64,000 nucleotides of DNA from a virus. Below, in pieces: positions 20,434 through 36,759 of this stretch. The notes under the pieces were generated by a model. That model saw only the letters and a program-made list of their open reading frames with translations. It was not told the DNA's origin and made no database searches. The DNA lies in the IMG/VR virus record IMGVR_UViG_3300037156_000189, positions 10,764 to 74,763 of that record; one strand, 5' to 3'. The number at the start of each line of letters is the position of its first letter. Position 1 is the first letter of the stretch. The position numbers were made by a program, and so were the translations under genes.

Positions 20434-20503
20434 TAGAATAAAGGGGTCAGGAGGCTGTAACCTCCGGCAAGCCTAATCTCCCCAAGGAGGAGACCATGAC
20501 CCC
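20434..20503 (+). promoter_or_regulatory. -10 box plus start-codon-sequestering leader, copy 1
   Basis: TAGAAT, then GGGGTCA...TGACCCC stem with internal hairpins. Confidence 0.75.
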
Positions 20504-21284
20504 AGAACCAGCATACATCGAATTGTCCACCAGCCGTGGCATCAGATTTTGGGTTGACATCGAGGACTACCCCAAGATTAGGTGCCGGCCGTGGTGGGCG
20601 CAAGCGACAGACCAAGGTACTTTCTACTTGACCAGCAGAGATACTGGGCTTGATGAGGACGGGCACAAGTGGCAGCGTTCTGTGCAGATCGCTCGCCTGA
20701 TCATGGGCTTGGAGTCGGGTAACCCACTTGTTGTAGGCCACATTAACGGCGAGCCCCGCGATAACAGGAAGATCAATCTGCGCGTCTGCACTCAGCGCGA
20801 TAATGCGCGGAACAGACGGATATCTTGCATCAATACGTCGGGGTTTAAGGGTGTATCGCAGCTAGGCTTGGATTGTTGGGCAGCCGTGATAAGGGTGAAC
20901 GGCCACGCATACCATTTGGGCACATTCGATTCCGCGGAGAAGGCATACCAGGCTTATTGCGAAGCGGCAGCATGGGCTTTCGGGCAGTTTGCTAACTTCG
21001 GGGAGGTTCGTGACGATAATTTCCGATTGCCTTCAGTACCGCGTTCTGTCGTGATGCCGCCAAGACTGGCGGATAAGAAGCCCATGCGGCGTAGGCTGGC
21101 CGAATGGACTCCTGGAATAAGGGAAGAGGTCCCTGCCGATTTTGCGGGGCACCGACACGAAGAGTTCTGTTCGGTTGCGTCTTCGGTTCTCAAGCCTCGC
21201 ACTCAGAGAGCAAGAGCGGGCCTTGGAGTTTGGGGTTTGTCCAAGAGCCCATTGGCCATCAGGAGCCACTTCATTTTCTCCTAG
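20496..21284 (+). CDS. HNH endonuclease with AP2 domain
   Basis: VGHINGEPRDNRKINLR, NTSGFKGV and LGTFDSAEKAYQAYCEAA..FG.FA. Confidence 0.9.
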   Translation: MTPEPAYIELSTSRGIRFWVDIEDYPKIRCRPWWAQATDQGTFYLTSRDTGLDEDGHKWQRSVQIARLIMGLESGNPLVVGHINGEPRDNRKINLRVCTQRDNARNRRISCINTSGFKGVSQLGLDCWAAVIRVNGHAYHLGTFDSAEKAYQAYCEAAAWAFGQFANFGEVRDDNFRLPSVPRSVVMPPRLADKKPMRRRLAEWTPGIREEVPADFAGHRHEEFCSVASSVLKPRTQRARAGLGVWGLSKSPLAIRSHFIFS

Positions 21285-21368
21285 CGCCTGTTCACGTTTT
21301 AATGTTTGCAATTTATTATTGCTTCGGTTTATAATCCGTAATGCGTGAGGATCTAGGAGGTCGCCAAC

Positions 21369-21620
21369 ATGCTGACTGATTCAGAATTTTGCTGCCCTCT
21401 CTGCGGTCTCGTCCTCACTTCCCTCCATGCTTTCCACCAACATCTCGCCAAAGTTCACAACTCTCGGTCTCAGCAGGCGGCTGTGGGACCGGGACCCACA
21501 GCGGAGCCCGGACCCGCCGCTGCTGTGGGACCGGGGCCTGCGGCGGAGCCCGCAGCTGCCGCAGCCAGTTATGTCAATGGCTGCCCAATCCTGGACGACA
21601 AGATCGAGGTTTGGTCATGA
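21369..21620 (+). CDS. C2H2 zinc-finger protein with a duplicated AAVGPGP.AEP repeat
   Basis: CPLC...FHQHLAKVH; GGAGG ribosome-binding site. Confidence 0.65.
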   Translation: MLTDSEFCCPLCGLVLTSLHAFHQHLAKVHNSRSQQAAVGPGPTAEPGPAAAVGPGPAAEPAAAAASYVNGCPILDDKIEVWS

Positions 21621-21813
21621 GCAAGGATTCTTTTCCTATCGTTGACCATTGTTTTGAGCCTCCCCAAGTACGATTCGAAAGTTCCTGATTTGGGGAGGGT
21701 ATCTTGAGCGGCAAGGTGTATCGTGTGTGCCCGAGGTGCGGTCGTAGGGTTGGTGTGAAAAAAGATGGTCGTCAGGTTTGCGGGGGTAAGTTGGGTTGTG
21801 GTTGGAGGACAAA

Positions 21814-22215
21814 ATGAGCAAGTATGTGGTTCCTGAAGGTATGCTGAAGGCGGTAGACAAGGCAATCGGTGAGATGCGACTTGGACAGGCCAGCCGGTTA
21901 GCCCCACGCAATGGCGAACTTTGGCCGAACGAGTTGAAGCAGGTAGCTTTGGAGGCGGCTATCGGATGGCTGGACGGGAAACTAACCGAATTCGACCAGC
22001 CCGGGGCCTTCGATCAGTACCGGAATGGTTACAACGCGGCTATCAGATGTGTGCGCCGGATGTTTCTTGCTCCCGAGCCGGAAGTACCAGAAGCGATCAA
22101 AGACTTGATGTGGAGTCAACCGCTCTATAAATGCGACACGGAGTTCTACGAGGCGATACCAAATGCCAACGCCTCTGTCCTCGAAGCCTACCGGCGCGGC
22201 AAGGCCGGAAAGTGA
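21814..22215 (+). CDS. Hypothetical protein
   Basis: GGAGG ribosome-binding site; VVPEGMLKA...PEVPEAIKDL. Confidence 0.75.
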   Translation: MSKYVVPEGMLKAVDKAIGEMRLGQASRLAPRNGELWPNELKQVALEAAIGWLDGKLTEFDQPGAFDQYRNGYNAAIRCVRRMFLAPEPEVPEAIKDLMWSQPLYKCDTEFYEAIPNANASVLEAYRRGKAGK

Positions 22216-22313
22216 GTTCCTCGTCCTCTGCTGGATGGGGTGGGTGCCGGTTCCATGCCTGGCCGGTTGTTTCCGTGGGGAGCGCATTCGGAGAACCCAA
22301 GACGCTTAGAATT

Positions 22314-22331
22314 TAGTGCGATATCGCACCT
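22314..22331 (+). promoter_or_regulatory. Palindromic 18-bp motif, copy 1
   Basis: TAGTGCGATATCGCACCT upstream of the RNA ligase. Confidence 0.55.
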
Positions 22332-22346
22332 TTTGGAGAGAAAGAC

Positions 22347-23276
22347 ATGCCGGAATTTAGAGAGTTCCCGTCTATTGAGCAGTACAGGAATGTCGTAAAA
22401 CTCGTCCGTGAGAGAGCGCAGTTCGACGGAAAGCCTCTGCCTACGATCTTGTTTTACGGGTCCGTCAAGCTCCACGGCACGAACGCGGCTGTTGGATTCG
22501 ATGAAGACGGTGAATTGTTCACCCAGTCCAGAAGCCAGATCATCACTCCGGATAATGACAATGCCGGGTTTGCGAAGTGGGTGCGGGCCAACGATCAGAT
22601 GTTCCCGAAACTCAAGTCGGCTGTGATCTACGGGGAGTGGTGCGGGCAGGGCATTCAGAAGAACGTTGGAATTAGCCAACTCCCAAAGATGTTCGTCCCT
22701 TTCGCCATCAAGTCGGGAGACAGGTGGTGGTCCCCGGAAGAAATGAAGACGTTCTTCTTCCACTCCGGCTTGCGTTGCATCTACGATTTCCCGTCATGGT
22801 CGATGCTGATTGATTTCAGCCGGCCAGAAGAGTTTCAGAACGATCTTGTCGATCTGACCGTAAAAGTGGAGCAGCAGTGCCCCGTGGCTCTCGCGCACGG
22901 CGTTGAGGGTATCGGTGAGGGCATCGTGTGGTGGGCGGCTCCCTGTGACGGGTTTAACACTGAGGGGCTGGTATTCAAGGTGAAGGGCGAGAAGCACAGC
23001 GAAACCAAAGTCAAAACCCTTGCCGCCGTCGATGTGGAGAAGATTGGAAATATCCGGGAGCTGGTAGCGACGATTGCTACCCCTCACCGCATGGAGAAGA
23101 AACTAGAAGGGATTCCGGTGGATATCAAGAACACAGGAACCTTCCTAAAAGCGGTCACGGAAGACGTGATGAAGGAAGAGGCCGACACCATCGACGCCAG
23201 CGGGTTGCCGAAAACGGACGTGATGAAAGGCATTGCAATGGCTGCAAAGAAGTTCTTCATGGAACAGGTAAAGTAA
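22347..23276 (+). CDS. RNA ligase, Rnl2-type
   Basis: Motif I KLHGTN, III YGEWCG, IV GEGIV and V FKVK. Confidence 0.88.
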   Translation: MPEFREFPSIEQYRNVVKLVRERAQFDGKPLPTILFYGSVKLHGTNAAVGFDEDGELFTQSRSQIITPDNDNAGFAKWVRANDQMFPKLKSAVIYGEWCGQGIQKNVGISQLPKMFVPFAIKSGDRWWSPEEMKTFFFHSGLRCIYDFPSWSMLIDFSRPEEFQNDLVDLTVKVEQQCPVALAHGVEGIGEGIVWWAAPCDGFNTEGLVFKVKGEKHSETKVKTLAAVDVEKIGNIRELVATIATPHRMEKKLEGIPVDIKNTGTFLKAVTEDVMKEEADTIDASGLPKTDVMKGIAMAAKKFFMEQVK

Positions 23277-23285
23277 GCCCAACTC

Positions 23286-23303
23286 TAGTGAGATATCGCA
23301 CCT
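23286..23303 (+). promoter_or_regulatory. 18-bp motif, copy 2
   Basis: TAGTGAGATATCGCACCT, 17 of 18 identical to copy 1. Confidence 0.55.
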
Positions 23304-23316
23304 CCCGGGAGCAAGC

Positions 23317-23541
23317 GTGAAAAGCATCAAGCGTGACACCAGAAAGCCGAGAATGCGTCAAAGGGATCGTGTGAACGCCCGCGAACAGTACGAGGAGTAC
23401 AAGCGCCTGGAGGCCGAGTACCTGGCCGCGAGATGTGAGGATTCCTGCGACTACGGGTTTTCGGAGCTGCGGGACCGGGACCCGCAGCGCCTGACGCCCT
23501 ATGACCGTATGTTCCTGCGGGCTTTGAAGATCAAAACCTGA
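23317..23541 (+). CDS. Hypothetical protein
   Basis: C-terminal LTPYDRMFLRALKI. Confidence 0.7.
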   Translation: MKSIKRDTRKPRMRQRDRVNAREQYEEYKRLEAEYLAARCEDSCDYGFSELRDRDPQRLTPYDRMFLRALKIKT

Positions 23542-23606
23542 GAAAGTTCAAAATAGCTCATCCACTTGTATCCGCCCTGGCGTACTATTCCTAGTGGAGA
23601 TTCATC

Positions 23607-24158
23607 ATGCACGAACGTTACCGTTATCTTCTCGAAGTTCTCGAAACGACCCTCAAGACCGTCGAGCGCGTCACTCGCCGCATGGATAAGGAGGCCGCGG
23701 AGGACCGGGAGACCCTGGGCTTCCTGCTCCACGAGCTGAGAAACATCGAGCACGACCTGCACCCGCCCACCCCTCCCCCGCCACCTCCCCCTCCCCCTCC
23801 CTCTCCAACTTTCGCAACCAGCATCAGCTTCACGGAGACTTCAATGAACCCGACTCAAGCAGGCAACACCCAAGTATTTACCGGCACGCTCGTTCCCGCC
23901 GGCGCAACTTACCCCGCGGACACCACGTTTACTCTGACGTCCAACGATCCGGCGGTAAGCCCCACTGTGGATTCAACAGGGCTGGTGGTCAGCGTTACCT
24001 ATCCCGACGGATGGGTTGAGAGCACCAGCACACCCCTCGCGTTCTCCTATGGCGCTGCCAGCGTCAGCGAGAACGGAGCCATCAGCGCGACCATTACCCC
24101 CTCGGCTCCCGTCGGCGGCGCGTTCCCCAGCGGAATTTCCTTTCAACAGTCTCAGTAG
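23607..24158 (+). CDS. Coiled coil - polyproline - Ig-like protein
   Basis: Helical N-terminus, a run of ten Pro, and a Thr/Ser-rich beta domain; second in-frame ribosome-binding site plus ATG at 23844. Confidence 0.75.
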   Translation: MHERYRYLLEVLETTLKTVERVTRRMDKEAAEDRETLGFLLHELRNIEHDLHPPTPPPPPPPPPPSPTFATSISFTETSMNPTQAGNTQVFTGTLVPAGATYPADTTFTLTSNDPAVSPTVDSTGLVVSVTYPDGWVESTSTPLAFSYGAASVSENGAISATITPSAPVGGAFPSGISFQQSQ

Positions 24159-24181
24159 TCAGCGGCTTCCCATCACTAAAG

Positions 24182-24215
24182 AAGGCCTCGGCCCTAACCA
24201 GGACCGGGGCCTTTT
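24182..24215 (+). terminator. Intrinsic terminator
   Basis: GGCCTCGG...CCGGGGCC followed by TTTT. Confidence 0.7.
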
Positions 24216-24262
24216 CTGCACCAATAGTTGACAACATAATCTAATCGTGGCGGTATTATTGA

Positions 24263-24923
24263 ATGAGCGCGCGCGATCCCATCCCCCATCTTCCGTCTGC
24301 CCCGCCTCTCGCTCTCTCCCTTTCTACTCTCCCCACCGCGCGCGATCTTCTCTCCATCCAGGATTTCCGCCTGCGCCTGCGCAGGACTCTTCTCGACTGT
24401 CCCACCCTGACTCTCAAACAGGTTGCTCAAGCCCTCGGCGTCACCAGGCAGTACGTCGGAGCCCTCGTTGGCTCCCTCGGCCGCCCCACATGTGCTCGTC
24501 ACGACAAGCCGGGGGCCGAAGCGTGATCAAGCCCAATCCCACCTCAAGGAACTGACCGTACGGGTGGCCAGGGGCGAATCAGCGGAGCAGGCCGCCCGCG
24601 CTCTCGGCATCTCCCTCCCTGCTGCGGCGAAACTTGGCTTTAGAACCAAAGCCATTCGCCCCTCTCATGGCGGCGGGCGAAAGGATTGTTTTTGTTGGCG
24701 ATGTAAGAAGGCTCAGGGACTTGTCACGCCGAGAGGGCCAAAGAGCGGAGCGGCGACAAGGGCCGAGGTCGAAGACTGGTTGGCGTGGACAGATCCCTAT
24801 GACGGAACTCAGCTAACACAGGCAACGATTGGGCGCCTGGCGGGAACGCATCAGGGCGCAGTGTCCAGGATTGCGAGGAGAAGAGGAAGGTTCGCGCTAC
24901 TTGACGAAGTTACCGATCAATAG
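24263..24923 (+). pseudogene. Multi-HTH protein split by a frameshift at a G5 tract (24511-24515)
   Basis: ORFs 24263-24526 and 24423-24923 join as ...KPGPKRDQ... if one G is removed; three HTH motifs. Confidence 0.6.
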
Positions 24924-25147
24924 GCTGAGGCACCAGAATGCCATTCCTGCCCATCCAAGGTTGACTCGTGGAGACGATGGGACATTCAATGCGGCTAGGG
25001 CCAACAGCACAAACGCGAAAACCAGAAGGATTGTTCCGAGCACAGACTACCTCCAAGACTAGATCATTGGATGCCTCACCCGCCCATCCACGCTGTACTC
25101 TTTGGATCACCCCTTAAATTTTCCTCTTGATAGTTGCTATTATTTGG

Positions 25148-25222
25148 TATACTGGGGGTGTCTCCAGTTGCATCTGGAGGTCCCACACTCAAGCGCCTTG
25201 GAGGACGATCGGTGACACCCCC
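25148..25222 (+). promoter_or_regulatory. -10 box plus start-sequestering leader, divergent copy
   Basis: TGgTATACT, then GGGGGTGTC...GACACCCCC stem and TCCAG/CTGGA hairpin. Confidence 0.65.
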
Positions 25223-25922
25223 GAAGAAAAGTCTAGTGCAGATTCGCGCAGAGCGCGAGCAACGTTGTGCTGAGATGCGAAGGTTATCAGGTCAAGGAAA
25301 AAATCAGACAGAGATTGCAGAATTGTTTGGGCTTACGCCTCAACGTGTAAGCCAGTTGGTGGGGAAGGCCCGCGGCCCTGGGTGTAACTATCCCAGGACT
25401 GTATCAGAGCGCATAGATGCCGATCAAAAAGCGTATTTAGAAATTCAAATGTGCAGCGGCGAGAAGTTTCTTTTGGACCCAGAAGAATTGGAGAAGGTCA
25501 GCGGATTCGGTTGGCGTACGCGCTCAAACCGTTCTGCACAAGCTCGTTACGTAGTTGCCCCGCTGGTTGAAATTGTGGATGGAAAGAAGTTATCCACTAC
25601 CTTGCAACTTGGTCGTGTGATCATGGGGCTGGGTCGAGGCGACCCGCGCGTTATCGATCACATTAACGGGGACACTTTGGATAATCGTAAGGCTAATTTG
25701 AGGGTGTGTACTAACGCGGAGAATATTAGAAACAGGTGCAGGGACAAAGACAACGCTTCTGGATTTAAAGGGGTTACATGTGAGGGCAAGAAATGGTTAG
25801 CCCAAATATTTCACAATGGGCGGGGGTACCGTTTAGGTAGGTTTTCTACTCCGGAAGAGGCGCACGCTGCGTATTGCGCGGCGGCCGTGCGTTTCTACGG
25901 TAAGTTTGCGAATTTTGGTTGA
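25212..25922 (+). CDS. HTH-HNH-AP2 endonuclease
   Basis: NQTEIAELFGLTPQRVSQL, IDHINGDTLDNRKANLR and SGFKGV...YGKFANFG; GTG start. Confidence 0.9.
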   Translation: MTPPKKSLVQIRAEREQRCAEMRRLSGQGKNQTEIAELFGLTPQRVSQLVGKARGPGCNYPRTVSERIDADQKAYLEIQMCSGEKFLLDPEELEKVSGFGWRTRSNRSAQARYVVAPLVEIVDGKKLSTTLQLGRVIMGLGRGDPRVIDHINGDTLDNRKANLRVCTNAENIRNRCRDKDNASGFKGVTCEGKKWLAQIFHNGRGYRLGRFSTPEEAHAAYCAAAVRFYGKFANFG

Positions 25923-25970
25923 AAAAGATTTATTGCAAACCTTCGACTTTATGTTATGCTTTGTCCTGTT

Positions 25971-26345
25971 ATGTCAGACAAGTCCCCCACTACCGTAGCT
26001 GAGAAGCGCCTGCTCTGGCTGATCCGTGATATCGTGGCGCAGTCCTGCGCTGACTACAAGAAAAGCGCTACCCCCGCTTACGATGATCCCATCCATGTCT
26101 TCTCTGGTTTCATCGGCATCCATGCCGAGGCGATCGCGCTGCTTGCCGAGTATGGGTTGGTAAAGGACCTGGCCGACAACGGCGGCCGAGTGGTCAGAGG
26201 GAAGCTGTTGCCGGTGGGCGAGGCAGCCAAAGTGCTGAAGACGGGGCCATTCCGTCCGAAGGAGGATGTGAATCCTCTCCCATCCGCCGCGGACCTCGAT
26301 GCCGTGGCGCAAGAAGACTCAGCGCGGGAGGCCACGCAGAAATGA
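25971..26345 (+). CDS. Hypothetical protein
   Basis: Promoter-like TTGCAA-N16-TATGCT upstream. Confidence 0.7.
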   Translation: MSDKSPTTVAEKRLLWLIRDIVAQSCADYKKSATPAYDDPIHVFSGFIGIHAEAIALLAEYGLVKDLADNGGRVVRGKLLPVGEAAKVLKTGPFRPKEDVNPLPSAADLDAVAQEDSAREATQK

Positions 26346-26713
26346 CCGACAAGCCCCCCATCATTCGGATCGATCCCTGCAGAAGCCGTGTTTTTGCTTG
26401 GATCGAGTTCAACTCCGATGCCTCTGAGGTGAGGGACGAAGTCACAAATCGTTTGGTTCAGCCGGCGGGGCCTGCGATCACAGCGAGATATCGAACCACT
26501 GGCATGGAGATGACGGCGTGGCCGATCACAGAGGAAGAGGCGAGGCGCATCATGCAGCCCGGCGCCGAGTTCGACTACTCCTCCGGCCGCGCCTGGTCCC
26601 AGATCGTGATGCCTTACAAATCCAAGAGAACGGTCAAATCAGGCCAAAGACAAGAGACGGTCAAACAACGTACCGAGATCGAGCAGCGCGCGGGAAGGCG
26701 GTGGTTGGCGTGA
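26342..26713 (+). CDS. KTSC-like domain protein
   Basis: SRVFAWIEFN...ARYRTTG...PITEEEARRIM...SSGRAWSQIV follows the KTSC pattern. Confidence 0.5.
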   Translation: MTDKPPIIRIDPCRSRVFAWIEFNSDASEVRDEVTNRLVQPAGPAITARYRTTGMEMTAWPITEEEARRIMQPGAEFDYSSGRAWSQIVMPYKSKRTVKSGQRQETVKQRTEIEQRAGRRWLA

Positions 26714-28425
26714 GACAATCTCTCCGAATCAGCGAGTCCCTCTCTCTTCCTTCCAACGCGGTGACTCAGACCTTCGCGTGCATTGGTCGCAAAGGTGCCG
26801 GGAAAACATACCTCGCGTCTATGCTGGCTGAGCAGATGCTCGATCTCGGTGCGCAGGTAGTCATCATTGATCCTGTCGGAAATTGGTGGGGGCTACGTGT
26901 AGATGCCGATGGGAAATCCAAAGGCAAAGACATCTTCATTGCCGGCGGTGAGCGCGGAGACGTGCCAGTCCTGCCTGAATCCGGTGCGCGGTTCGCGCGG
27001 CTGGTTGTCGAGCGCAATGTTTCGATGGTGTTGGACGTTTCTGGTTTTCGTCAGGGCGAGCGCAAGCGATTTGCTGCCGATTTTGCTGAGGAGTTTTTTC
27101 ATCTCAAGAAGACTCAACGTAGTGCTGTTCATCTGTTCGTTGAGGAAGCGCAATTGTTTGTTCCTCAGCGGTGCGGTCCTGAAGAAGCGCGAATGCTCGG
27201 TGCGTTTGAGAACATCATTCGACTTGGCAGGAATTACGGAGTGGGTGCGACTTTAATTTCCCAACGGCCGCAATCGGTCAATAAGGAAGTTCTCTCCCAG
27301 GTCGAATGCCTTTGCGTGCTTCAGGTCAACGGTTCGCACGAGCGAAAGGCTCTGGAAGAATGGGTGCAGGAAGCCGGTGCAGACCGAAAGCTCGTCGGCG
27401 AGTTGCCGGGGTTGTCGCAAGGTCAAGGCTATGTCTGGTCGCCTTCTTGGCTCAGGGTATTCGAGCGGGTCAAGTTCGCTAAGAAAGTTACGTTCGATGC
27501 CTCGGCGACTCCGGAAGTCGGTAAGGCGACGAAGGCCGCGTTGTTGACTGCTGTCGATGTTGAAGCGCTAAAGGCCGATCTCCAGTCGGTGATCGCCAGT
27601 GCTGAGAAAGACGATCCGAAAGTTCTGCGGCGAAAGATTGCAGAATTGGAGCGTGCTGTGAATCAGACGGCTCCTAAAGATTCTGAAGAGACAAAACGGC
27701 GGTTGGCAGTAGCCGAGGAAGATGTTCGCAAGCTTGCACAGTCGTTGTCGGAGGCACAACTTCGCTGTAACACGCTTCAGGGCTACATGGCTGCGTTGCA
27801 GAAGATTCAGGCGGCAGCAGAAACGATGCAGCCCCTGGAGTCTGTCGTAGTCACGCGATCTGAATATCGAAGCCCTGTGACCCCTAAGTTGAAGCCACAG
27901 CGAGAATGGCCGAAGCCGTTCAAGTCTGTTGCGGCTTCGTCGAACGGTCATCTTCGCGCCGGAGCACGCCGCATGCTCGCGTGTCTGTGCCAGTGGCTTC
28001 CTGCCGGTCGCACTGAGTCTCAGGTTGCTGCGCAGGTGCAGATGAAGAAAACCGGAGGTACGTGGTCGGCTTACAAATCCGATCTGCGCAATGGCGGTTA
28101 CATCGAGATTGGTGGTGGCGGCCTCTGGTACGCTACCGATCAGGGACGCAATTATTTAGGCGCGGATGTTCCCGATACACCTACCACTACTAATGAGGTT
28201 GTTGAACTCTGGGGTCAGAAACTTCGCCTTGGTGCGCGGAATATGCTGGATGTACTCGTGCGGCACAAAGGCCGGGCGATTGCCAAGGATGAATTGGGCC
28301 AGGCTGTGAACATGGAGTCGAGCGGCGGAACATTCTCCGCTTACCTCTCTGATCTCAAGCAGGCGGGACTGATTGTAGTGGACCGTGACGGCGTGCGTGC
28401 GAATACGGAGACATTGTTGCTATGA
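26710..28425 (+). CDS. HerA/FtsK-like ATPase with coiled coil and two C-terminal winged helices
   Basis: Walker A GRKGAGKT, Walker B LFVEEAQ and RLGR.YG....ISQRP; repeated GGT(W/F)SAY.SDL. Confidence 0.85.
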   Translation: MRQSLRISESLSLPSNAVTQTFACIGRKGAGKTYLASMLAEQMLDLGAQVVIIDPVGNWWGLRVDADGKSKGKDIFIAGGERGDVPVLPESGARFARLVVERNVSMVLDVSGFRQGERKRFAADFAEEFFHLKKTQRSAVHLFVEEAQLFVPQRCGPEEARMLGAFENIIRLGRNYGVGATLISQRPQSVNKEVLSQVECLCVLQVNGSHERKALEEWVQEAGADRKLVGELPGLSQGQGYVWSPSWLRVFERVKFAKKVTFDASATPEVGKATKAALLTAVDVEALKADLQSVIASAEKDDPKVLRRKIAELERAVNQTAPKDSEETKRRLAVAEEDVRKLAQSLSEAQLRCNTLQGYMAALQKIQAAAETMQPLESVVVTRSEYRSPVTPKLKPQREWPKPFKSVAASSNGHLRAGARRMLACLCQWLPAGRTESQVAAQVQMKKTGGTWSAYKSDLRNGGYIEIGGGGLWYATDQGRNYLGADVPDTPTTTNEVVELWGQKLRLGARNMLDVLVRHKGRAIAKDELGQAVNMESSGGTFSAYLSDLKQAGLIVVDRDGVRANTETLLL

Positions 28426-28589
28426 CCCATGAAATCCCCCACACTTGCCACAGTCTTACCCCCACCGAGCGCCAACAGATCCTAAGGCGCCTCAAGTACG
28501 GCCCCGCTCTTCCGCGAGAGGAACTGGCTGAATACGCGAACAAGCTGAAGCGGGATGTGTTGGACAAACGAGAGGGAGTGAAGAAGTGA
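28422..28589 (+). CDS. Small hypothetical protein
   Basis: Coupled ORF starting MTHEIPH. Confidence 0.55.
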   Translation: MTHEIPHTCHSLTPTERQQILRRLKYGPALPREELAEYANKLKRDVLDKREGVKK

Positions 28590-28726: not shown

Positions 28727-29070
28727 GCCCCCGCCCCCGACTTCCCAAAACGCAGTGGGCCAACGACAGTATCCGGGTGGACGTGAAGGCCGCCGGACTG
28801 GTTGACGAGCCGGCCAATCAAGAGGTTTTCAACGCCTGTCTCAATGAGATGGGTTCTGTGAGATTCAGAATCATGCTGGGCTGTTACGGCCCTGGGACAG
28901 AAACTGCTCCGAAGCCCAAGTACCACTGGATTCTCGGGGAGTCGGCGACAATTCTATGCCGCGATCTTGAAACTGCCGAATGGTTCAGGGAGTCTCTTCT
29001 CTCCTGGCTGAAGTCTCTTGACGGCATTCGTCTAGAGGCCGTCGACGACGGAGCGGAGGACGCGCAATGA
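28723..29070 (+). CDS. Hypothetical protein
   Basis: Coupled ORF. Confidence 0.65.
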   Translation: MSPRPRLPKTQWANDSIRVDVKAAGLVDEPANQEVFNACLNEMGSVRFRIMLGCYGPGTETAPKPKYHWILGESATILCRDLETAEWFRESLLSWLKSLDGIRLEAVDDGAEDAQ

Positions 29071-29627: not shown

Positions 29628-30211
29628 TGCCTCCCACTTTCACGATTATTACTGCCACGATTCAAAGAGAGTCCCTTGTTCGCTGCTGCGCCTCTGTGAA
29701 TGCTCAGTCTCTTACTGATTGGCAGCATCTGATCGTCATGGACTGCGCGATAGAGGATGTGAATTCAGAGTTGATGTTTTCCCTGGCGCATCCTCGCCGC
29801 CGATTCTACTGCTGTGGTCAGCGCTACAACGATTTCGGTAACTCACCGAGGCATCAGGCTTACGAGTTCGCCACGGGAGATTTTGTATACTTCTTGGACG
29901 ATGATAACGAGTTTGCGGATTCCGACGCGCTGCAGCGCATGTCCGACGCGCTTGCCAAAGCGGGTTGTCCTCTGGTTTCCATCTTTCCAATCATCCGTGA
30001 TGGCCAGAGGTTCTTCAATGACCCTCCCGGCCTTTGCCTGACCGACACTGCCAACTTCTGCCTGCGCCGCCAGATTGCGCAGTGGCTTGCGGGGCCGGAG
30101 TACGAAATGGATGGGATCTTGATCGAGCGGTTGGTCAAGAAGTGCGGATACGAAGCGTTCCCCGACGTCGAACCGATCGCTATCATGGAGAAATCGAATC
30201 ATGGAAAATAG
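29627..30211 (+). CDS. Glycosyltransferase family 2
   Basis: TIITAT..R.SL..C..SV.AQ and YFLDDDN. Confidence 0.88.
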   Translation: MPPTFTIITATIQRESLVRCCASVNAQSLTDWQHLIVMDCAIEDVNSELMFSLAHPRRRFYCCGQRYNDFGNSPRHQAYEFATGDFVYFLDDDNEFADSDALQRMSDALAKAGCPLVSIFPIIRDGQRFFNDPPGLCLTDTANFCLRRQIAQWLAGPEYEMDGILIERLVKKCGYEAFPDVEPIAIMEKSNHGK

Positions 30212-31052
30212 TCCCCGCATTTTACTTGGCTTCCTTTCGGCTTACCACCCATCGCGTTGGCACCGTCGTCAGATCTTGCGTGAGCAGTGCCTCAAGAATT
30301 CTCCGCTCCCTTGGAAGTTCGTTTTCGGGGACGAGCCCTATCCAGGGGATCGTGAGCGTTGTGGAATCCCTGACGATGAAATTCTTCACGCGTCAGGATC
30401 GGACGCGAAGAAGTATCTTCATCTTAAGGATGTCGCGCTGTTCAAATATGCGCTTGATAATGGGTTCGACTACTGCTTAAGAGGGTGCGACGACTCATGG
30501 GTTTTCCCCGACCGCATCGTCCGCGCCGGCTTGGAGCCTTTCGATTATGCCGGCAATTTTCCGTGCAAGTTCAAACTGGGTGGAACTTTTGATGTTCCCA
30601 TGGCGAGAATGAATTACGCGCACGGCGGGTGTGGAATCTGGCTCTCGCGTAAGGCCATGCAGATGATCGTGGATACTCCCTGGGATGAGCATTATTTGGA
30701 CTCGTGGCCTGAGAAGCTCGATGTGGGGTTTGGGATCAAATTTCCCAAGATGCCCTGGTATTGGGACGACCATTTTCTGGGGGAGGTCTTGCAAGGGAAT
30801 TTGGGTTATTTCGATCCTCTGCGCGACCAGCCGTGGCAATCCTACGCGGCCAATGGAATTGCCTGTTACGAAGACTCGGACTTGTTCTTCAACGACGAAC
30901 CCCAACGGCCCCTCACGATCCATGATCCCGGCGTGCACAAGCCAAACTCACGTGAGATGGATGAAGTTGTTGAGCAAGCGAGAGCAAGGAACATCGCGGC
31001 GATGATGATTGGTCAGCCAGTCGATGTGGAATTGGAGCCCACCCATGGTTGA
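30201..31052 (+). CDS. GT31/Fringe-like glycosyltransferase
   Basis: RRQILREQ, FDYCLRGCDDSWV, YAHGGCGIWLSRKAM and WDDHFLG. Confidence 0.75.
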   Translation: MENSPRILLGFLSAYHPSRWHRRQILREQCLKNSPLPWKFVFGDEPYPGDRERCGIPDDEILHASGSDAKKYLHLKDVALFKYALDNGFDYCLRGCDDSWVFPDRIVRAGLEPFDYAGNFPCKFKLGGTFDVPMARMNYAHGGCGIWLSRKAMQMIVDTPWDEHYLDSWPEKLDVGFGIKFPKMPWYWDDHFLGEVLQGNLGYFDPLRDQPWQSYAANGIACYEDSDLFFNDEPQRPLTIHDPGVHKPNSREMDEVVEQARARNIAAMMIGQPVDVELEPTHG

Positions 31053-31566
31053 TTTCAATCTCTTTCAAAGAGTCGGCAGTTTCTTCGAGCAGCGTCGTGA
31101 GTACAGAGCCCAAGCTCTCAAGAACCTCCGTAAGCGCGAGGGACTTCCTTCCCCAGTTGACGAGAACGGTTCTCCTCTCGAAACTCGCATGGATGACTAC
31201 GGCAACGCGACATATCACAATGCTGCGGGAGAGAAGGTCGACCGAGTTCTCTTCGCCGGGGCCGGCAAGGACGGCAAGCCCGGATCGTTCGCTGTCGGCC
31301 AGCGCCGCGGTGATCCGCTCGACGAGGCAACTCGGAACTGGGCCAGTGGCCACTCAGCTTTTGAAATCCTCGACGTCGCAGAAGACGGTCGTCGCCTTTC
31401 CGATGAGCTGAACGATCTCGACCGGGATTCCAGCACCTTCGCCATGGCTGAAACTGTGTCCCACGGCGTCGAGTCCGAGCAGGCGCCGGGATTTGAGATC
31501 ACTGGGACTTCGGACGAAGAGATCGACCAACGGCTGCAGGAGTTTTTGAAGAGAGGTCCGCGGTGA
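31045..31566 (+). CDS. Acidic hypothetical protein
   Basis: GGAG ribosome-binding site; starts MVDFNLF. Confidence 0.7.
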   Translation: MVDFNLFQRVGSFFEQRREYRAQALKNLRKREGLPSPVDENGSPLETRMDDYGNATYHNAAGEKVDRVLFAGAGKDGKPGSFAVGQRRGDPLDEATRNWASGHSAFEILDVAEDGRRLSDELNDLDRDSSTFAMAETVSHGVESEQAPGFEITGTSDEEIDQRLQEFLKRGPR

Positions 31567-32015
31567 TGAGCGATAGGCCAAAGATTGTGTGTCTCTGCGG
31601 GTCCACGCGGTTTCGCGATCAGTTTGCTCAAGCGAACTATCGTGAAACGCTGAAAGGGAGCATAGTCCTGAGTGTGGGCTTTTATGTCCATGCCGCAGAT
31701 GAGTGCCCGAACTGCGATGCGTCGCAGAGCTTCGCGAAAGAGCAGAATGCTGAGGGTCCGCAAGGAAAGTGTTGGCAGTGCGGTGCAGACCTCGGCTGTA
31801 CGTCGGAGCAGAAGATCGCTTTGGATGAACTTCACAAGCGCAAGATTGATTTGGCCGACGAGATTTTGGTGGTTACCGTTCAAAGATATATCGGCGAGTC
31901 TACGTTTTCTGAGATAGAATATGCTCGGCAGTGTGGTAAGTCTGTCCGATGGCTAGAGCCTACTGCTGAGGAGCGATTTCATGAGTTGGCCGAAAGGCGT
32001 GCCGCGCGCACCTGA
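31563..32015 (+). CDS. Nucleoside-deoxyribosyltransferase/TIR-like fold protein with a zinc-ribbon insert
   Basis: CLCGSTRF...LHKRKIDLADEILV...YIGEST..EI.YA; CPNC/CWQC insertion. Confidence 0.65.
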   Translation: MMSDRPKIVCLCGSTRFRDQFAQANYRETLKGSIVLSVGFYVHAADECPNCDASQSFAKEQNAEGPQGKCWQCGADLGCTSEQKIALDELHKRKIDLADEILVVTVQRYIGESTFSEIEYARQCGKSVRWLEPTAEERFHELAERRAART

Positions 32016-32595
32016 AACGATTGCAAAAATGAAGGCGTCTTCTCCGCGCAGATCAGGATGGCGCCATTCGGAAGAGACAAAGTTGAAAATAGCAGCGGCT
32101 CGTCAAGCGCGCGAAGCGTTAAAGCCGCCGAAGGCTGCATGTAAAAAACGAGGTCGAAATGGGTGGAAGTGGACTGATGAGCAGAGGGAAAAATACAGTG
32201 CAAGTCGCAAAGGACGCCATTTTAGCGACGAGGCAAGAGCACGGCTTGCTGACAATAGGCGTATGTTTTGGGATAGTCTCCCCTCTGAAGATCGAGAACG
32301 ACGATTGGTGCGTTGGCGAGGGTACGGTTCTGAAGGTGTGCGTTCACGACGCCCTAGCGGCGCTTGTCAAAAGTGTGGAGTTTATCGTCAGTCTCTTCAT
32401 CGTGAGCACATTATTCCGCGTTGGAAGGGTGGAAAGGACGATAGCGAGAATATCCAATGGCTTTGTGCAAATTGCCACGAGGATAAGACTCGCGAGGATC
32501 TCCGTGGTATACCGGGACCGAACAGAGGTAAAAAACCAAGCGAGGAGACACGAGTTAAAATGCGTGCGGCCGCGCTTCGTCGTTTGAGTCGCTAA
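31981..32595 (+). CDS. HNH endonuclease with NUMOD3 repeats
   Basis: HSEETKLKI repeats; CQKC..LHREHIIP..GG.D..ENIQWLCANCH. Confidence 0.88.
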   Translation: MSWPKGVPRAPETIAKMKASSPRRSGWRHSEETKLKIAAARQAREALKPPKAACKKRGRNGWKWTDEQREKYSASRKGRHFSDEARARLADNRRMFWDSLPSEDRERRLVRWRGYGSEGVRSRRPSGACQKCGVYRQSLHREHIIPRWKGGKDDSENIQWLCANCHEDKTREDLRGIPGPNRGKKPSEETRVKMRAAALRRLSR

Positions 32596-32667
32596 CAGTG
32601 GTAGTACGAATATTGAAATTGAGTATCCAGTAACGAGAGGTAAACCTGTGCGATATACGGAGTCAGT

Positions 32668-32946
32668 ATGAGTAACACGGCTGACACTCGTCCTGATCTT
32701 ATTCACCCGTTCCAGTTCCAACCGGGGCGTGAGTCTGAATGCAGCCACTTTTACCCGTGGCTCGGCGGATACGTCAAGTGCAACGCGAAGGAATCCAGTC
32801 CAATTCATCGCAATGGCCCACATCTGCTGACGGCGAAAAACGGCGAGCAGGCTTATTGCCTTGGCGATCCTGCTGTTTGTCAGTTTTGTGCGGAAGGCCG
32901 TCCCGCAACATTTTACAACTGGAAGGCGGCTGAAGATGCCCGCTGA
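32668..32946 (+). CDS. Cys/His-rich hypothetical protein
   Basis: GGAG ribosome-binding site. Confidence 0.65.
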   Translation: MSNTADTRPDLIHPFQFQPGRESECSHFYPWLGGYVKCNAKESSPIHRNGPHLLTAKNGEQAYCLGDPAVCQFCAEGRPATFYNWKAAEDAR

Positions 32947-33160
32947 CTTTTTCCTCTGTCCCGGTTGCGAACTGCCGGTAGCCGAAGAAGGTTCTCTTTG
33001 CGAGTCCTGTGCTGCATGGCAGGCACAGAAGTTGGCAGCTATGAATTCCGAGTATCAGGATAGCTTGGCGAGGCAAGTGCGTCGCCGTATGAGCCCTGGC
33101 GCGCGATTCGCCGAAGACTTGTCGGATATGGCGAAGGCCGTGGAACGGAGTCGGAGATGA
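32936..33160 (+). CDS. Zinc-finger hypothetical protein
   Basis: CPGC...CESC. Confidence 0.65.
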   Translation: MPADFFLCPGCELPVAEEGSLCESCAAWQAQKLAAMNSEYQDSLARQVRRRMSPGARFAEDLSDMAKAVERSRR

Positions 33161-33366
33161 ACATAACCGGTGTCTACCAGTTCCCGCAGAATCGGTGTAT
33201 TTGCTCCATCTGCAACTTCATGTGCTGGACGGAGCAGAAGAGCGGAAAAGTGGTGGTGTCGCATCCGACTCACCCGACTTGTCCCAATTCGCATCAGGCT
33301 TTCGAAGTGCCTGTGACTGAGTGCAAACCACTACCGCCAGAGTTTTTCTCGGACCAGATAGGATAG
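33157..33366 (+). CDS. Hypothetical protein
   Basis: CSIC...HP...CPN. Confidence 0.65.
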   Translation: MNITGVYQFPQNRCICSICNFMCWTEQKSGKVVVSHPTHPTCPNSHQAFEVPVTECKPLPPEFFSDQIG

Positions 33367-33368
33367 CA

Positions 33369-34124
33369 ATGACTCAAGAAATCGAATCCATCAAGCCCGC
33401 CCTGTCGGTCATTCTTGACGACGGTGACTTCATCGTCAATTCCACCGGCCCGGTCGGCAAGGCAATGGCGCAGGCAATCTTACCTCTCGCCGCCGGTGCG
33501 AGGAAAGTGACGATCATCACAGATGGTGAGATGAAGGTGATGAAGCGGAATGGGAACGGGACTAACGCGGGACAAGCGCCGCAGACAGCGGCTCAGGCGA
33601 TGGCTCAGCGCCGGCCTGCGCTCCCCGATGGTCCCGATGTCCAGGATTCTTTTGTCTCCGATATCGAAACTGGAGTTACGGGCGAGCAGGCCATGGGTGA
33701 AACTCCTGCCCCTACTCCCGGCCCGTCCGAGCCAGTCAAGATCCCAACTAAGCGCAAACCAGTCATTTTCCAGGATGCTGCCGCCCCACCGGCTCCCGAG
33801 CTGGCTGAGGAGGAGATGGACCGGCTTATGGCCGAGGCGCAGCAGGCGGAAGCGGAAGCGGCCAAGGTGGCCGAGGATCAGCGGTTCCAGCGGCAGCAGG
33901 CTGTGCAGGCTAATCAGGAGCCCTCTGATGTTCCTGCCGAGCAGCCCGCTGAGGCCGCCAAGCCACGGCGTCGTGAGCGCCAGCTTGCCACCACGGGCCG
34001 GCCCTGCGGCCGCTGCGGCGGTGGCGGGAAGGTCATGGGGGACGCCGGGTTCACCGGAGCCTGTCCCGTGTGCCATGGTGAGGGCCAGGTGAAGACCTGG
34101 GACCGGTCGTTGAAGGTTCGATAG
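33369..34124 (+). CDS. Protein with a C-terminal DnaJ-type zinc finger
   Basis: CGRCGGGG...CPVCHGEG. Confidence 0.75.
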   Translation: MTQEIESIKPALSVILDDGDFIVNSTGPVGKAMAQAILPLAAGARKVTIITDGEMKVMKRNGNGTNAGQAPQTAAQAMAQRRPALPDGPDVQDSFVSDIETGVTGEQAMGETPAPTPGPSEPVKIPTKRKPVIFQDAAAPPAPELAEEEMDRLMAEAQQAEAEAAKVAEDQRFQRQQAVQANQEPSDVPAEQPAEAAKPRRRERQLATTGRPCGRCGGGGKVMGDAGFTGACPVCHGEGQVKTWDRSLKVR

Positions 34125-34167
34125 GCTGAATCTGTAGTATGGTAATGTTGCAAACCAAGGATACCTG

Positions 34168-34770
34168 ATGGCTCACATGCCCGATTCCGCGCTTCCTCTC
34201 TGCAACAATCCGCAGCATCCTGCGGGTCTCCCGAGGCGTATGATCTATCTTCAGACCAAGGACCAGGCCCATGTCTTTGGCTGCCAGGCCTGTCGCGACG
34301 TTAATCGTAAGCTCTCTGTCCGCGTGATTACCGATCAGTTCTACCGGCGCGAGGTCAGGAAGTCCCTGGCCGCATCCGGCCAGTTGCTGAAGGGTCCGAT
34401 GCGCCGTCGTGAACGCTCTCCCATGGAACTTGGCCTGATGCGGGAGATGAGTCTCGATGCCGCTCGCCGCGACACTCGCTCTCGCACGATCGATTGGGAT
34501 TCCGAGCATCGGCGTTCCCGCGACGGCAAGTACGAATTGGTTCGCTACGAGAGCCTGGGCAACGGCAGCCTGCGAATCCAGATGGCGATCAACGGCAAGC
34601 TCTGCCCTCAGATGGATGATCATGTAGCCAGCCGGGAAGAGTTCAAGACTGAGGAAGCATACTGGAGCCGGGTCGCGCGAGGCAGCGAGCTTATCCTGCA
34701 CCTCTACGGCGATCCTAGAAATCCGTTGACGCCGGAAGAAAGCGCGCAGCGGGAAAGTGAAACTTACTAA
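34168..34770 (+). CDS. Hypothetical protein
   Basis: Long ORF with GC-rich third positions; CNNPQH and CQAC. Confidence 0.75.
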   Translation: MAHMPDSALPLCNNPQHPAGLPRRMIYLQTKDQAHVFGCQACRDVNRKLSVRVITDQFYRREVRKSLAASGQLLKGPMRRRERSPMELGLMREMSLDAARRDTRSRTIDWDSEHRRSRDGKYELVRYESLGNGSLRIQMAINGKLCPQMDDHVASREEFKTEEAYWSRVARGSELILHLYGDPRNPLTPEESAQRESETY

Positions 34771-34790
34771 GTCAGAACGGAGAACCAATC

Positions 34791-35024
34791 GTGAATTTTC
34801 AAATTACCTACGCTCAAGTCGATCCTGCGAATAACAGCATCAACAGGCAGCAGACTTTGTACAACTGCATTATCGACGGCAGCGTTGTGCGCTCCGATCT
34901 TGTTGTATTCCGGGACGAGGCCAACACCGGCTCGGTAGTCGCAGTAGTTCCGCTTGCCGGGGTGCTGATGATAGTGGAGAGCGAGCATTTGACTGCCCCG
35001 GCCGCTCCTGCTCCGGCCGTCTGA
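34791..35024 (+). CDS. Hypothetical protein
   Basis: GGAG ribosome-binding site. Confidence 0.65.
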   Translation: MNFQITYAQVDPANNSINRQQTLYNCIIDGSVVRSDLVVFRDEANTGSVVAVVPLAGVLMIVESEHLTAPAAPAPAV

Positions 35025-35071
35025 GCGGGAATCTCTTAACAGGTCCAACCAGAATCGAAAGGATTACACAG

Positions 35072-35599
35072 ATGTCTCGACTTGCCGCAGTCCGCACCGG
35101 TCAACCAACTCAAGGTTTAGGCACAGTTCCTAACGGAAAGCATCTGCCTGCCGGCATTGATGATCTTGAACCGCCTGTGACTATAAACCCTCGCTCCGCG
35201 CATTCCGCCGCGGCTGCGACTGTGACGGCCGCCTGGCTGTCGCTGACCGCAACCGAGCTGGAGGTCCGGAAGTATTTCAAGTCGATCCCGGTTCCTTCCG
35301 GCTTGGAGGCTCTGGCAAAGATGCGCCACCAATGCGACCTGGCGGCCGAGACTCTTCAGGGCCGGATGGACGAATCAAATACCGAACGCTGCACTGGCTG
35401 TGGGAAGACGCTTGAGGAGACGCATAAGAACCAGTGGCTGATGATCGGGGCGGATGTTGACGCTGAGACAGGCGTGCCGATGCCGTACCGCTTCTGCGGC
35501 CCGTTATGTATTCGTGAGCGCAATCGCGAGAAGATGCTTCCGAAGGAACTGCGCGATCAGAAGCGGTTTGATGGCGCCGACATGGGCGAGGTGCGGTGA
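35072..35599 (+). CDS. Protein with a TRASH/MYM-like zinc finger
   Basis: CTGC...FCGPLC. Confidence 0.7.
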   Translation: MSRLAAVRTGQPTQGLGTVPNGKHLPAGIDDLEPPVTINPRSAHSAAAATVTAAWLSLTATELEVRKYFKSIPVPSGLEALAKMRHQCDLAAETLQGRMDESNTERCTGCGKTLEETHKNQWLMIGADVDAETGVPMPYRFCGPLCIRERNREKMLPKELRDQKRFDGADMGEVR

Positions 35600-35913
35600 T
35601 GTCTCAAAAATACGAAGACATCCTCAAAAACTCCGTCGAGAAGCTCTCCCTCGGTCCGAATGACATCCTTATTGTGAAGTCTCAGGAAGCGATGTCGACG
35701 TTTCTGGAGATGACCCAGGCCGGTGTCGGCTTCTCCAAATATGCGAACCCGATTCTCCTTGTCCCCGGCGGCCTGGAGAAGGCAACACGGGACGATCTTC
35801 TCGACGCGATCAGGATTCTGGATGAGAAGATCGCGAACGAAGGAAAGCCGGAGGAAGCGGTCAGCCGGATCATTACTGATTTGCATGCGCCGCTTGTAAG
35901 GAGAGTCCAATGA
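35599..35913 (+). CDS. Hypothetical protein
   Basis: VEKLSLGPNDILIVK. Confidence 0.7.
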   Translation: MSQKYEDILKNSVEKLSLGPNDILIVKSQEAMSTFLEMTQAGVGFSKYANPILLVPGGLEKATRDDLLDAIRILDEKIANEGKPEEAVSRIITDLHAPLVRRVQ

Positions 35914-36095
35914 GCCACACCTACTCCATCTTGAATCCGCGAGTCCCTTGCTGCGCGCAGATATTTCTTGATCTTTCCAACCGGTCCAACACCTATTGCC
36001 AACGCGAACTGGGCCATCCGGATGAGGCCGTGAAGGAATTTCCCGGCGGGCACAACATTGTCGACGAGCCTCCTGTGGCGAAGGTACAGAAATGA
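35910..36095 (+). CDS. Small hypothetical protein
   Basis: Coupled ORF with C..ELGH....H. Confidence 0.6.
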   Translation: MSHTYSILNPRVPCCAQIFLDLSNRSNTYCQRELGHPDEAVKEFPGGHNIVDEPPVAKVQK

Positions 36096-36373
36096 CCCGT
36101 CCCCTGAGCCCGATTCATGCGCCGCTCGACGCCGACCCGCCGTCGAGCCCGCCACCGATTCCGCGCATCGCCCGCCTTGCCAAGCTCGATTCGCGCCCGC
36201 TGTCCGGTTTGCCGCGTTCGCTCGGCCCCGGCGGAGCATCCTCCGCGTTCGCGCGGGCAGTGGACAAGGCGCTGGTCGATGAGATGGCGGATCAGTTGCG
36301 AGGATTAGACACGGGCGAGAGTGAGATCGGCGATTGGGCCGGTGAGATCATCGCTGCGTTTTGTGAGGAGTAA
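36092..36373 (+). CDS. Hypothetical protein
   Basis: Coupled ORF. Confidence 0.6.
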   Translation: MTRPLSPIHAPLDADPPSSPPPIPRIARLAKLDSRPLSGLPRSLGPGGASSAFARAVDKALVDEMADQLRGLDTGESEIGDWAGEIIAAFCEE

Positions 36374-36663
36374 TGGACTCCATTTCTCCGGTTCTGACAG
36401 AACTCGAAGTGCCCGCTGAGCAGGTCGTCGCGCTCGGGCAAGATGGGTTCTACCCGATCGTTGTTGCGCGCGTCAGTTGGCGAGATAAAGACGAGAAGCT
36501 CATGGCGGTGTGCTCCTACACTCGCTACCGCTTCACCGCCGCGGAGAGGGAGTTGATTTTGAAAGGGGCGGACTTGATCCTGGGGCAGCCGCATCATGGT
36601 CAGATGATGCCGGTATCGCTGCAGTTGGCGATGCCAGGAGAGTATCCGGTACAGGAGAAATAA
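36373..36663 (+). CDS. Hypothetical protein
   Basis: TRYRFTAAERELILKGADL; GAGGAG ribosome-binding site. Confidence 0.7.
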   Translation: MDSISPVLTELEVPAEQVVALGQDGFYPIVVARVSWRDKDEKLMAVCSYTRYRFTAAERELILKGADLILGQPHHGQMMPVSLQLAMPGEYPVQEK

Positions 36664-36689
36664 AGTATCCAGTTGGAGGGTAAATAAAG

Positions 36690-36759
36690 TACACTTATGG
36701 GGTCAGGAAGTTGTAGCTTCCGGCAAGCCTAATCATTCTGGAGGAATGATCATGACCCC
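36690..36759 (+). promoter_or_regulatory. -10 box plus start-sequestering leader, copy 2
   Basis: TACACT, GGGGTCA...TGACCCC, GGAAG/CTTCC and ATCATTC/GAATGAT. Confidence 0.75.

Follow-up and report, generated by a model that had tools for sequence, protein, structure and literature searches.

Two HNH endonuclease genes of an uncultured phage are each preceded by a 61-nt leader which, judged from its sequence and that of its homologues, is a real, selected and uncatalogued RNA family. The stretch of DNA analysed, hereafter the window, comprises 64,000 nt (positions 10,764 to 74,763) of the IMG/VR record IMGVR_UViG_3300037156_000189. The two leaders, copies c1 and c2, are predicted to form a four-way junction of helices P1 to P4, in which P1 pairs over the start codon and P4 holds the Shine-Dalgarno (SD) sequence. 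We favour the view that such a leader would silence HNH genes on read-through RNA by locking their start codon and would be relieved on a shorter, locally initiated transcript; we give this two-transcript switch a probability of about 0.6.

A covarying four-helix leader

The c1 and c2 leaders are homologues, each spanning exactly 61 nt with the first G of the 5′ arm and the last C as its ends, 74% identical and both ending in ATGACCCC. The 13-mer GGCAAGCCTAATC, which the sequence-only reading had picked out as identical in two copies, is found exactly in c1 and c2 only, and every string quoted in that reading for c1, c2 and a third site, c3, sits where it had been placed. The pattern GGGGTCA-N(35-60)-TGACCCC occurs twice in the window, at c1 and c2, against 0.00 occurrences expected. 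The parts of the two copies are the following.

20434-20439, + strand: c1 -10-like hexamer TAGAAT, 3 nt 5′ of P1, spacer AAA
20443-20503, + strand: c1 leader, 75.9 bits, E = 6e-19 with covariance model R1
20443-20449 with 20497-20503, + strand: c1 P1, GGGGTCA/TGACCCC, present in the minimum free energy (MFE) fold of c1
20450-54 with 20461-65, + strand: c1 P2, from the family consensus
20466-73, + strand: c1 P3, GGCAAGCC, from the family consensus
20477-81 with 20489-93, + strand: c1 P4, from the family consensus
20486-90, + strand: c1 SD, GGAGG
20496, + strand: c1 start codon ATG
36690-36695, + strand: c2 -10-like hexamer TACACT, 3 nt 5′ of P1, spacer TAT, no -35
36699-36759, + strand: c2 leader, 85.9 bits, E = 1e-21 with covariance model R1
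36699-36705 with 36753-36759, + strand: c2 P1, GGGGTCA/TGACCCC
36706-10 with 36717-21, + strand: c2 P2
36722-29, + strand: c2 P3
36732-38 with 36744-50, + strand: c2 P4
36740-44, + strand: c2 SD, GGAGG
36752, + strand: c2 start codon ATG

The true c2 start is this ATG, 7 nt past GGAGG; the list of open reading frames (ORFs) places it two codons earlier, at 36746. P1 is present in the single-sequence MFE folds of c1, c2 and c3, with modest z scores (-2.3, -2.7 and -1.7, respectively). The complete four-helix shape is the MFE structure of c2 only; for c1, whose MFE fold has other pairs in its centre, the four-helix anatomy is taken from the family consensus, and c3 is not four-helix.

Sixteen further members were found, on 13 viral contigs (IMG/VR), two metagenome contigs and one contig of a metagenome-assembled genome (MAG), giving 18 with c1 and c2. 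The IMG/VR members came from pattern scans, protein-guided fetches and a covariance-model search of five whole phage records, and the two metagenome members from a protein-guided metagenome scan. A 15-mer scan returned 38 loci, of which four were real, and a pattern combining P3 and SD gave one new member among the matches listed. As for pattern loci on genome contigs, 22 of 23 were rejected, their scores of ~20 bits coming merely from the pattern-fixed P1 and P3, and one was real; this member lies on a contig of 3.6 kb from the bin of an Alphaproteobacteria MAG.

When 17 sequences were aligned to the model, 91.8% of cells were standard pairs and 10 of the 21 pairs had changed on both sides (40 cells), values of pairing and covariation that none of 500 column shuffles reached. 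Sliding the 3′ partners by 1-3 columns lowers pairing to 35-55%, and RNAalifold independently recovers the same four helices. Compensatory changes occur in P2, in P4 and in one pair of P1. The covarying leader of the sequence-only reading is upheld, as one of four helices, by the compensatory changes and RNAalifold. A comparison of strands gave 5 sense G-U cells versus 18 A-C cells, 13 of them in one doubtful terminal P4 column and 2 from alignment shifts.

The helices differ in what they conserve. P1 is 7 bp long and pairs GGGGUCA with UGACCCC over the start region. P2, of 4-5 bp with a 5-7 nt loop, covaries strongly (GGAGG/CCUCC, GGAAG/CUUCC, GGGUG/CACCC, AGCG/CGCU, GACGC/GCGUC). P3 is a tiny GG-loop-CC hairpin, in the form GGA-CGAA-UCC in three members and absent in one (L222); its loop reads CAAG, CGAA, CCAAGA or UUCUCA, P2 loops and junction bases also vary, and GGCAAGCC-UAAUC is identical in 10 of the 18 members. 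P4, of 5-7 bp, carries GGAG(G) in its loop and 3′ strand and covaries as well (UCUCC/GGAGA, AUCAUUC/GAAUGAU, UCGUUC/GAACGA, GCUAC/GUAGC, UCGUC/GACGA). By eye, complementarity between P2 and P3 loops that would allow a kissing interaction follows no consistent pattern.

No Rfam family accounts for the leader. The window contains no match to Rfam 15 at gathering score, riboswitches, ribozymes and HEARO included, and relaxing the threshold to E <= 10 adds, for the two leader regions, only a 9.8-bit whalefall-1 fragment on the opposite strand; the Rfam match that, in the sequence-only reading, would have removed novelty is absent. Full-text literature searches returned no description of such a leader. 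A tRNA-like element was rejected, as ARAGORN finds no gene in the window and the helix order and loop sizes are unlike those of tRNA. A riboswitch is made less likely, as the 18 members share no invariant unpaired position outside the SD, hence no pocket.

Conservation of this kind might alternatively reflect an element acting as DNA, its inverted repeats and G/C runs being an AP2 operator or homing-site mimic over the promoter, allowing I-TevI-like autorepression, or a recombination or end signal of a mobile cassette. I-TevI does repress its own late promoter via an operator resembling its homing site (PMC2988022), and a preference for GC-rich DNA is reported for the AP2 domains of HNH-AP2 enzymes (Magnani 2004, as cited in PMC10448857). 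Moreover, a contig of another peat run connects 20306 to 21392, skipping the c1 leader and its gene as one insertion or deletion unit (what lies between is recorded as not known). Compensatory changes in three helices, with SD and AUG at fixed places in them, nevertheless point to RNA, and one member, L049, keeps the element in front of a gene without an AP2 domain. We regard a DNA-level role as most improbable.

Pairing over the start codon and a putative promoter

The 3′ arm of P1 covers the UG of the AUG plus the next five coding bases (ACCCC). Sequence variants within the family show that P1 is selected as pairing and not as codons. In L061, a protein-guided match, P1 reads GGGGCCA/UGGCCCC, a compensatory change of U-A to C-G, and the protein start changes with it from MTP to MAP; the basal P1 pair of L222 is G-U, and three members start with GUG while P1 is kept. 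Selection on the pairing would therefore explain the MTP start shared by otherwise unrelated N-termini, which had been pointed out from the sequence and is borne out, all three proteins of the window beginning with (M/V)TP. Here an RNA structure would dictate the first residues of a protein, usually MTP, and MAP upon covariation of the stem.

A TAnAnT hexamer lies exactly 3 nt 5′ of P1 in all 18 members (TAGAAT, TACACT, TATACT, TATAAT, TAAAAT, TATGAT, TAAACT), so that the -10-like hexamer proposed to accompany the leader is kept in every homologue at a fixed distance. Its T1, A2 and T6 never change, whereas positions 3-5 and the 3-nt spacer are free to vary; in most members a purine and then a G precede the hexamer. 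Invariance of just these three positions is the conservation signature of the -10 element of sigma-70 promoters. If the box is a promoter, it would be of a -10-only type, like T4 late promoters. A -35-like sequence is found in the c1 type only (TTGGAT or TTGCAA at 17-18 nt), that of c1 itself being a weak TTGGAT 18 nt upstream.

In our proposal, the element would act in cis, as a conserved regulatory leader on the mRNAs of phage HNH endonucleases, most of them HNH-AP2. On read-through RNA from upstream genes, the full 61-nt element would fold as a four-way junction in which P4 sequesters the GGAGG SD and P1 locks the start codon, so that the ribosome could not load and the nuclease would not be made. 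The putative -10-only promoter 3 nt 5′ of P1 would, at the usual 7-nt distance, start RNA at about the third or fourth G of the arm. As this short RNA would lack most of the 5′ arm, P1 could not close and the start codon would be freed, the SD being partly held in P4. Nuclease synthesis would thereby be tied to the local promoter, as for T4 I-TevI, I-TevII, I-TevIII, segB and Aeh1 mobE. Two transcript classes with different fates would be the simplest reading of box plus arm, because conservation covers both the complete arm that P1 needs and a box from which RNA would begin within that arm. Promoter activity, the +1 position and the translational effect are what we infer from these sequences; the promoter and the switch between long and short transcripts are plausible, precedented and consistent with every test run.

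Opening energies were compared with this scheme. Opening the region from SD to AUG costs on average 10.3 kcal/mol in the ensemble with 60 nt of upstream RNA, 10.7 kcal/mol when the RNA begins at nt 1 of P1 and 7.1 kcal/mol when it begins at nt 4. SD-bearing ORFs genome-wide have a median of 7.35 and a 90th percentile of 12.3 kcal/mol, a crude background, as spurious and coupled ORFs are counted in it. In opening cost the truncated RNA comes close to the average because P4 still holds the SD. Energetics thus fit, qualitatively, a switch that would be partial.

Several observations weigh against the two-transcript switch. The opening cost of the full-length RNA (10-12 kcal/mol) is high, not extreme, next to the 90th percentile, and the modelled release amounts to only ~3.5 kcal/mol, P4 holding the SD in the short RNA too. 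There is no conserved -35, a sigma-70 consensus scan, for want of a -35 box, calls none of the three sites, and a loose RGTAnRnT scan of the window gave no other site combined with GGGG, hence no independent promoter class. The near-invariance of P1 is partly a matter of ascertainment, as the members come mostly from a few related phages and from searches seeded on P1 or P3. Finally, the model leaves conserved P2 and P3 unexplained, a simple occluding hairpin being sufficient; it is chiefly because P2 and P3 could have a protein-operator role that we hold the simple model at the probability given above.

Part of this evidence would suit a constitutive attenuator or insulator equally well. In that case TAnAnT would be no promoter, or would start RNA upstream of the arm, and the leader would keep translation low and uncoupled from upstream ORFs on all HNH transcripts. 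Structure and covariation fit such a device just as they fit the switch, and the missing -35, the missing sigma-70 call and the SD still held by P4 in truncated RNA speak for it. What it leaves unexplained is the invariance of T1, A2 and T6 at a fixed 3 nt in 18 of 18 members while neighbouring bases vary freely, and for this reason we consider the attenuator unlikely.

P2 and P3, conserved or covarying though needless for simple occlusion, raise another question: whether the junction, P2 or P3 is bound by the HNH-AP2 enzyme, by a phage or host repressor or by a small ligand, which would open or lock P1 for autoregulation or timing. The identity of GGCAAGCC-UAAUC in more than half of the members would agree with such an operator or sensor, and I-TevI does autoregulate, though at the DNA level (PMC2988022). 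An invariant pocket is nevertheless lacking, given that the P3 loop varies or is missing (L222) and that P2 loops and junction vary; the leader also serves HNH proteins with unrelated N-terminal domains, one of them without AP2, and matches no riboswitch or other Rfam family. An operator or sensor of this sort seems improbable to us. We hold a portable sensor module to be doubtful as well, that is, one that would travel with HNH genes and be opened or locked by a trans factor, such as a phage timing factor or the HNH-AP2 protein bound to the mRNA or promoter DNA of its own gene. If true, the module would amount to a self-contained cassette through which selfish nucleases autoregulate their expression, and the MTP N-terminus would be its footprint in the protein.

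HNH genes, the third site and the source phage

All 18 members lie directly upstream of an HNH gene, and at least five HNH protein architectures occur behind the leader. The three genes of the window and these architectures are listed below.

20496-21284, + strand: HNH-AP2 gene c1, 262 aa, start MTPEPAY, Pfam HNH_3 27.7 bits (cut-off 24.8), AP2 24.9 bits
36752-37465, + strand: HNH-AP2 gene c2, 237 aa, start MTPPQGY, Pfam AP2 22.4 bits only
25212-25922, + strand: helix-turn-helix (HTH)-HNH-AP2 gene c3, 236 aa, start VTPPKK, HNH_3 33.8 bits, Sigma70_r4 25.2 bits, AP2 25.5 bits
Architecture: c2 type, Cys-rich N-terminus, HNH and AP2
Architecture: c1 type
Architecture: CxC-rich type, in phage G002 and on the MAG contig
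Architecture: L049, 163 aa, HNH_3 only, no AP2
Architecture: L327, 366 aa, double HNH

The AP2 matches of c1, c2 and c3 (22-25 bits) are below the Pfam cut-off of 33.3; L018 reaches 39 bits for AP2. The c2 protein has no Pfam HNH_3 match, yet its alignment with relatives takes in their conserved H...DN..NLR HNH motif, and the N-terminus of c3 is an HTH of sigma-70 region-4 type. The leader had been thought confined to AP2-HNH genes, a restriction that falls with L049. That dissimilar HNH genes have it in common, on the other hand, was confirmed: their proteins are 29% identical over the C-terminal halves (c1 versus c2, over 142 aa) or not detectably similar (c2 versus L049, E = 0.85), and the L049 leader nonetheless scores 60 bits. 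Because it is common to HNH genes of different domain architectures, the regulatory leader itself would seem, on this sequence comparison, to be part of the portable unit.

Between G000 and its relatives, no DNA within a 5-kb region is better conserved than the leader (79% identity versus 65% in the gene). The covariance-model search of the five whole phage records found no copy beside a non-HNH gene, and ~180 loci of other HNH-AP2 or N-terminal-domain relatives held no further copies. As far as these searches reach, the element is specific to a narrow set of phages and, there, to HNH genes. The carrier phages are three close relatives (TerL, the large terminase, 78-84% identical) and a distant one (27%). 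Leaders group by gene type and not by genome, c1 being nearest to its orthologue L220 and c2 to L057 and L060, a sequence pattern of long-term conservation rather than recent homogenisation. The syntenic homologues of c1, L136 and L220, bear the same leader. The c2 gene is directly upstream of the large terminase gene (37597-39291), a place that is syntenic in G001, G003 and G004; as four phages have the c2 type beside TerL, its position suggests a resident gene and not a mobile one.

The simplest dismissal of the leader would be that it reflects mere shared ancestry, or recent copying of the 5′ ends of duplicated HNH genes, and has no function. Copies do occur in related phages, and the c2-type genes are syntenic by TerL. 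Protein similarity, though, has fallen to 29% identity or is no longer detected, whereas the leader stays at 60-85% identity with compensatory changes, and the element is also present in the phage whose TerL is only 27% identical. This explanation we find scarcely credible.

Other features of these genes were observed in the relatives. G001 has no c1-type copy, and in its c2-type HNH gene (L008:1104) a TGA replaces a conserved Trp (RWN*H versus RWNWY); the gene is otherwise full length, in one frame, 62% identical and with its leader intact. A nonsense mutation, a recoded codon or an error would account for this TGA. In the window, the c2 stop at 37465 is followed by AGGAGG at 37468-73, and the listed TerL ORF starts only at ATG 37597 (window 37466-37600).

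The third site, c3, is of a different standing. Its parts are given here.

25148-25153, + strand: c3 hexamer TATACT, preceded by TGg (extended -10)
25154-25162 with 25214-25222, + strand: c3 P1, 9 bp, GGGGGTGTC pairing with GACACCCCC
25163-67 with 25174-78, + strand: c3 P2, 5 bp with a 6-nt loop, directly after P1
25200-04, + strand: c3 SD
25212, + strand: c3 start codon GTG

TATACT runs straight into GGGGGTGTC, the 3′ side reads GTGACACCCCC, and P3 and P4 have no counterpart. The site scores 7.6 bits with model R1 and 11.1 bits with model R2 (E = 1.5 window-wide), which is not significant genome-wide; it is the best new + strand match in the 64-kb window and falls exactly at the pre-specified third HNH start. 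The proposal of three copies in the window is therefore borne out for c1 and c2, and c3, with 11.1 bits at best, is no statistically clean copy. Its sequence makes it a probable diverged relative of the leader family and a doubtful member. No close full-length homologue of the c3 protein was found. At the c3 locus the relative G004 has an HTH-only gene of 201 aa (L512:1449-2054, against window 25212-25922), with weak similarity to the c3 N-terminus (E = 0.008) and its own TTGACA...TATAGT promoter-like site. This arrangement hints that, in c3, an HNH-AP2 module may have been fused to a resident HTH gene.

The source phage is known from a 74.8-kb record, ~97% complete, of which the window covers 64 kb, and it occurs in metagenomes from peat and freshwater. 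Among its genes are those for a DNA polymerase, a helicase, an RNA ligase and a large terminase. Megablast gave no cultured-phage match to the region, the closest cultured TerL is only ~25% identical, and PHROG annotation of the ORFs neighbouring the leader genes yielded almost no matches. The c2 and c3 genes lie inside a long array of closely packed same-strand ORFs with only weak terminator-like sites upstream, and c1 is preceded by a divergent promoter region (a divergent intergenic stretch of ~500 bp). In the latter, 5′ of c1, TCTAGTTAGACA occurs twice, 28 nt apart (window 20160-20205), and the related GTCTAGTAGAAT overlaps the c1 hexamer; from their sequence and position, these copies look operator-like. 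The best sigma-70 consensus promoter of the region, TTGCAA-18-TATAAT with 10 of 12 matches, is at window 21306-21335, right after the stop of HNH c1, which is reminiscent of T4, where promoters of downstream genes lie in or beside inserted nuclease genes.

Other segments of the region vary between strains. Related strains lack the RNA ligase gene (22347-23276) together with the ORF upstream of it, given that contigs from three runs connect 21611 to 23478 with 27 other letters between (window 21612-23477). Contigs from three other peat runs connect 26713 to 28458 with 5 other letters between (window 26714-28457), and a 635-aa ORF at 26518-28425, with a partial PHROG match to terminase large subunit, is mostly lacking in related strains. 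Such junctions give the segment 26714-28457, close on the 3′ side of HNH c3, the look of an insert that is optional or mobile. The TerL homologue of G003 (G003:C1:22097-24853, locus L500) matches in two parts, residues 3-479 and 478-564, ~1.07 kb apart within a single 965-aa open frame that has no stops, and may contain an intein or another in-frame insert.

Comparison with known systems

Structured RNAs beside HNH-domain genes are known from HEARO, the omega-RNA of IscB. HEARO differs in being a large guide RNA and not a 61-nt translational leader, as the Rfam result also indicates. The HNH-AP2 homing endonucleases (Magnani et al. 2004; the ‘IPA-HNH’ homing endonuclease genes of ICP1-like phages, PMC10448857) have the same architecture of HNH_3 with a C-terminal AP2, and likewise several copies per phage genome and variation in presence or absence between strains. 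On a word search, PMC10448857 mentions no promoter, hairpin or untranslated region, and a leader RNA is reported in neither paper; moreover, unlike those genes, one leader-bearing gene lacks AP2.

The nearest precedent is in T4-type phages. In I-TevI, I-TevII, I-TevIII and segB of T4 and mobE of Aeh1, a stable structure sequesters the ribosome-binding site (RBS) on early and middle transcripts, and a late promoter just 5′ of the nuclease gene gives an RNA too short to form it (PMC2988022; Gibb & Edgell 2009 as cited there). The analogy with the RBS-sequestering hairpin of I-TevI, drawn in the sequence-only reading, is accurate (PMC2988022). RBS-sequestering hairpins are also found in the T4 late genes e, soc, 39, 25 and 26 (as cited in PMC2988022). 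These follow the same logic, long early or middle RNA being silent and promoter-proximal RNA active; they differ in concerning non-nuclease genes, with idiosyncratic structures and no conserved family.

The leader resembles the T4 nuclease type in that pairing occupies both SD and start region of the long RNA (here by computation), in that the nuclease gene would belong to a longer transcription unit (here to judge from the same-strand ORF array around c2 and c3), and in that a -10-type box without -35 is placed where any RNA begun from it would be missing the 5′ pairing arm. In both cases the nucleases are HNH or other homing endonucleases. Unlike the single hairpin of T4, the leader would be a junction of four helices in ~61 nt, its closing stem covering the AUG and first coding bases and setting the MTP N-terminus, and its box is TAnAnT where the T4 late box is TATAAATA. 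It is, in addition, a covarying sequence family across at least five HNH architectures in non-T4-like phages, known from sequence alone.

Homing endonuclease genes need expression that is harmless to their phage. To our knowledge, the promoter-in-hairpin arrangement of T4 is the only worked-out solution, and it comes from a handful of unrelated hairpins. The leader is a candidate new Rfam family and, if the proposed switch is true, would be the first conserved, covarying RNA family for nuclease-gene silencing, outside T4-like phages.

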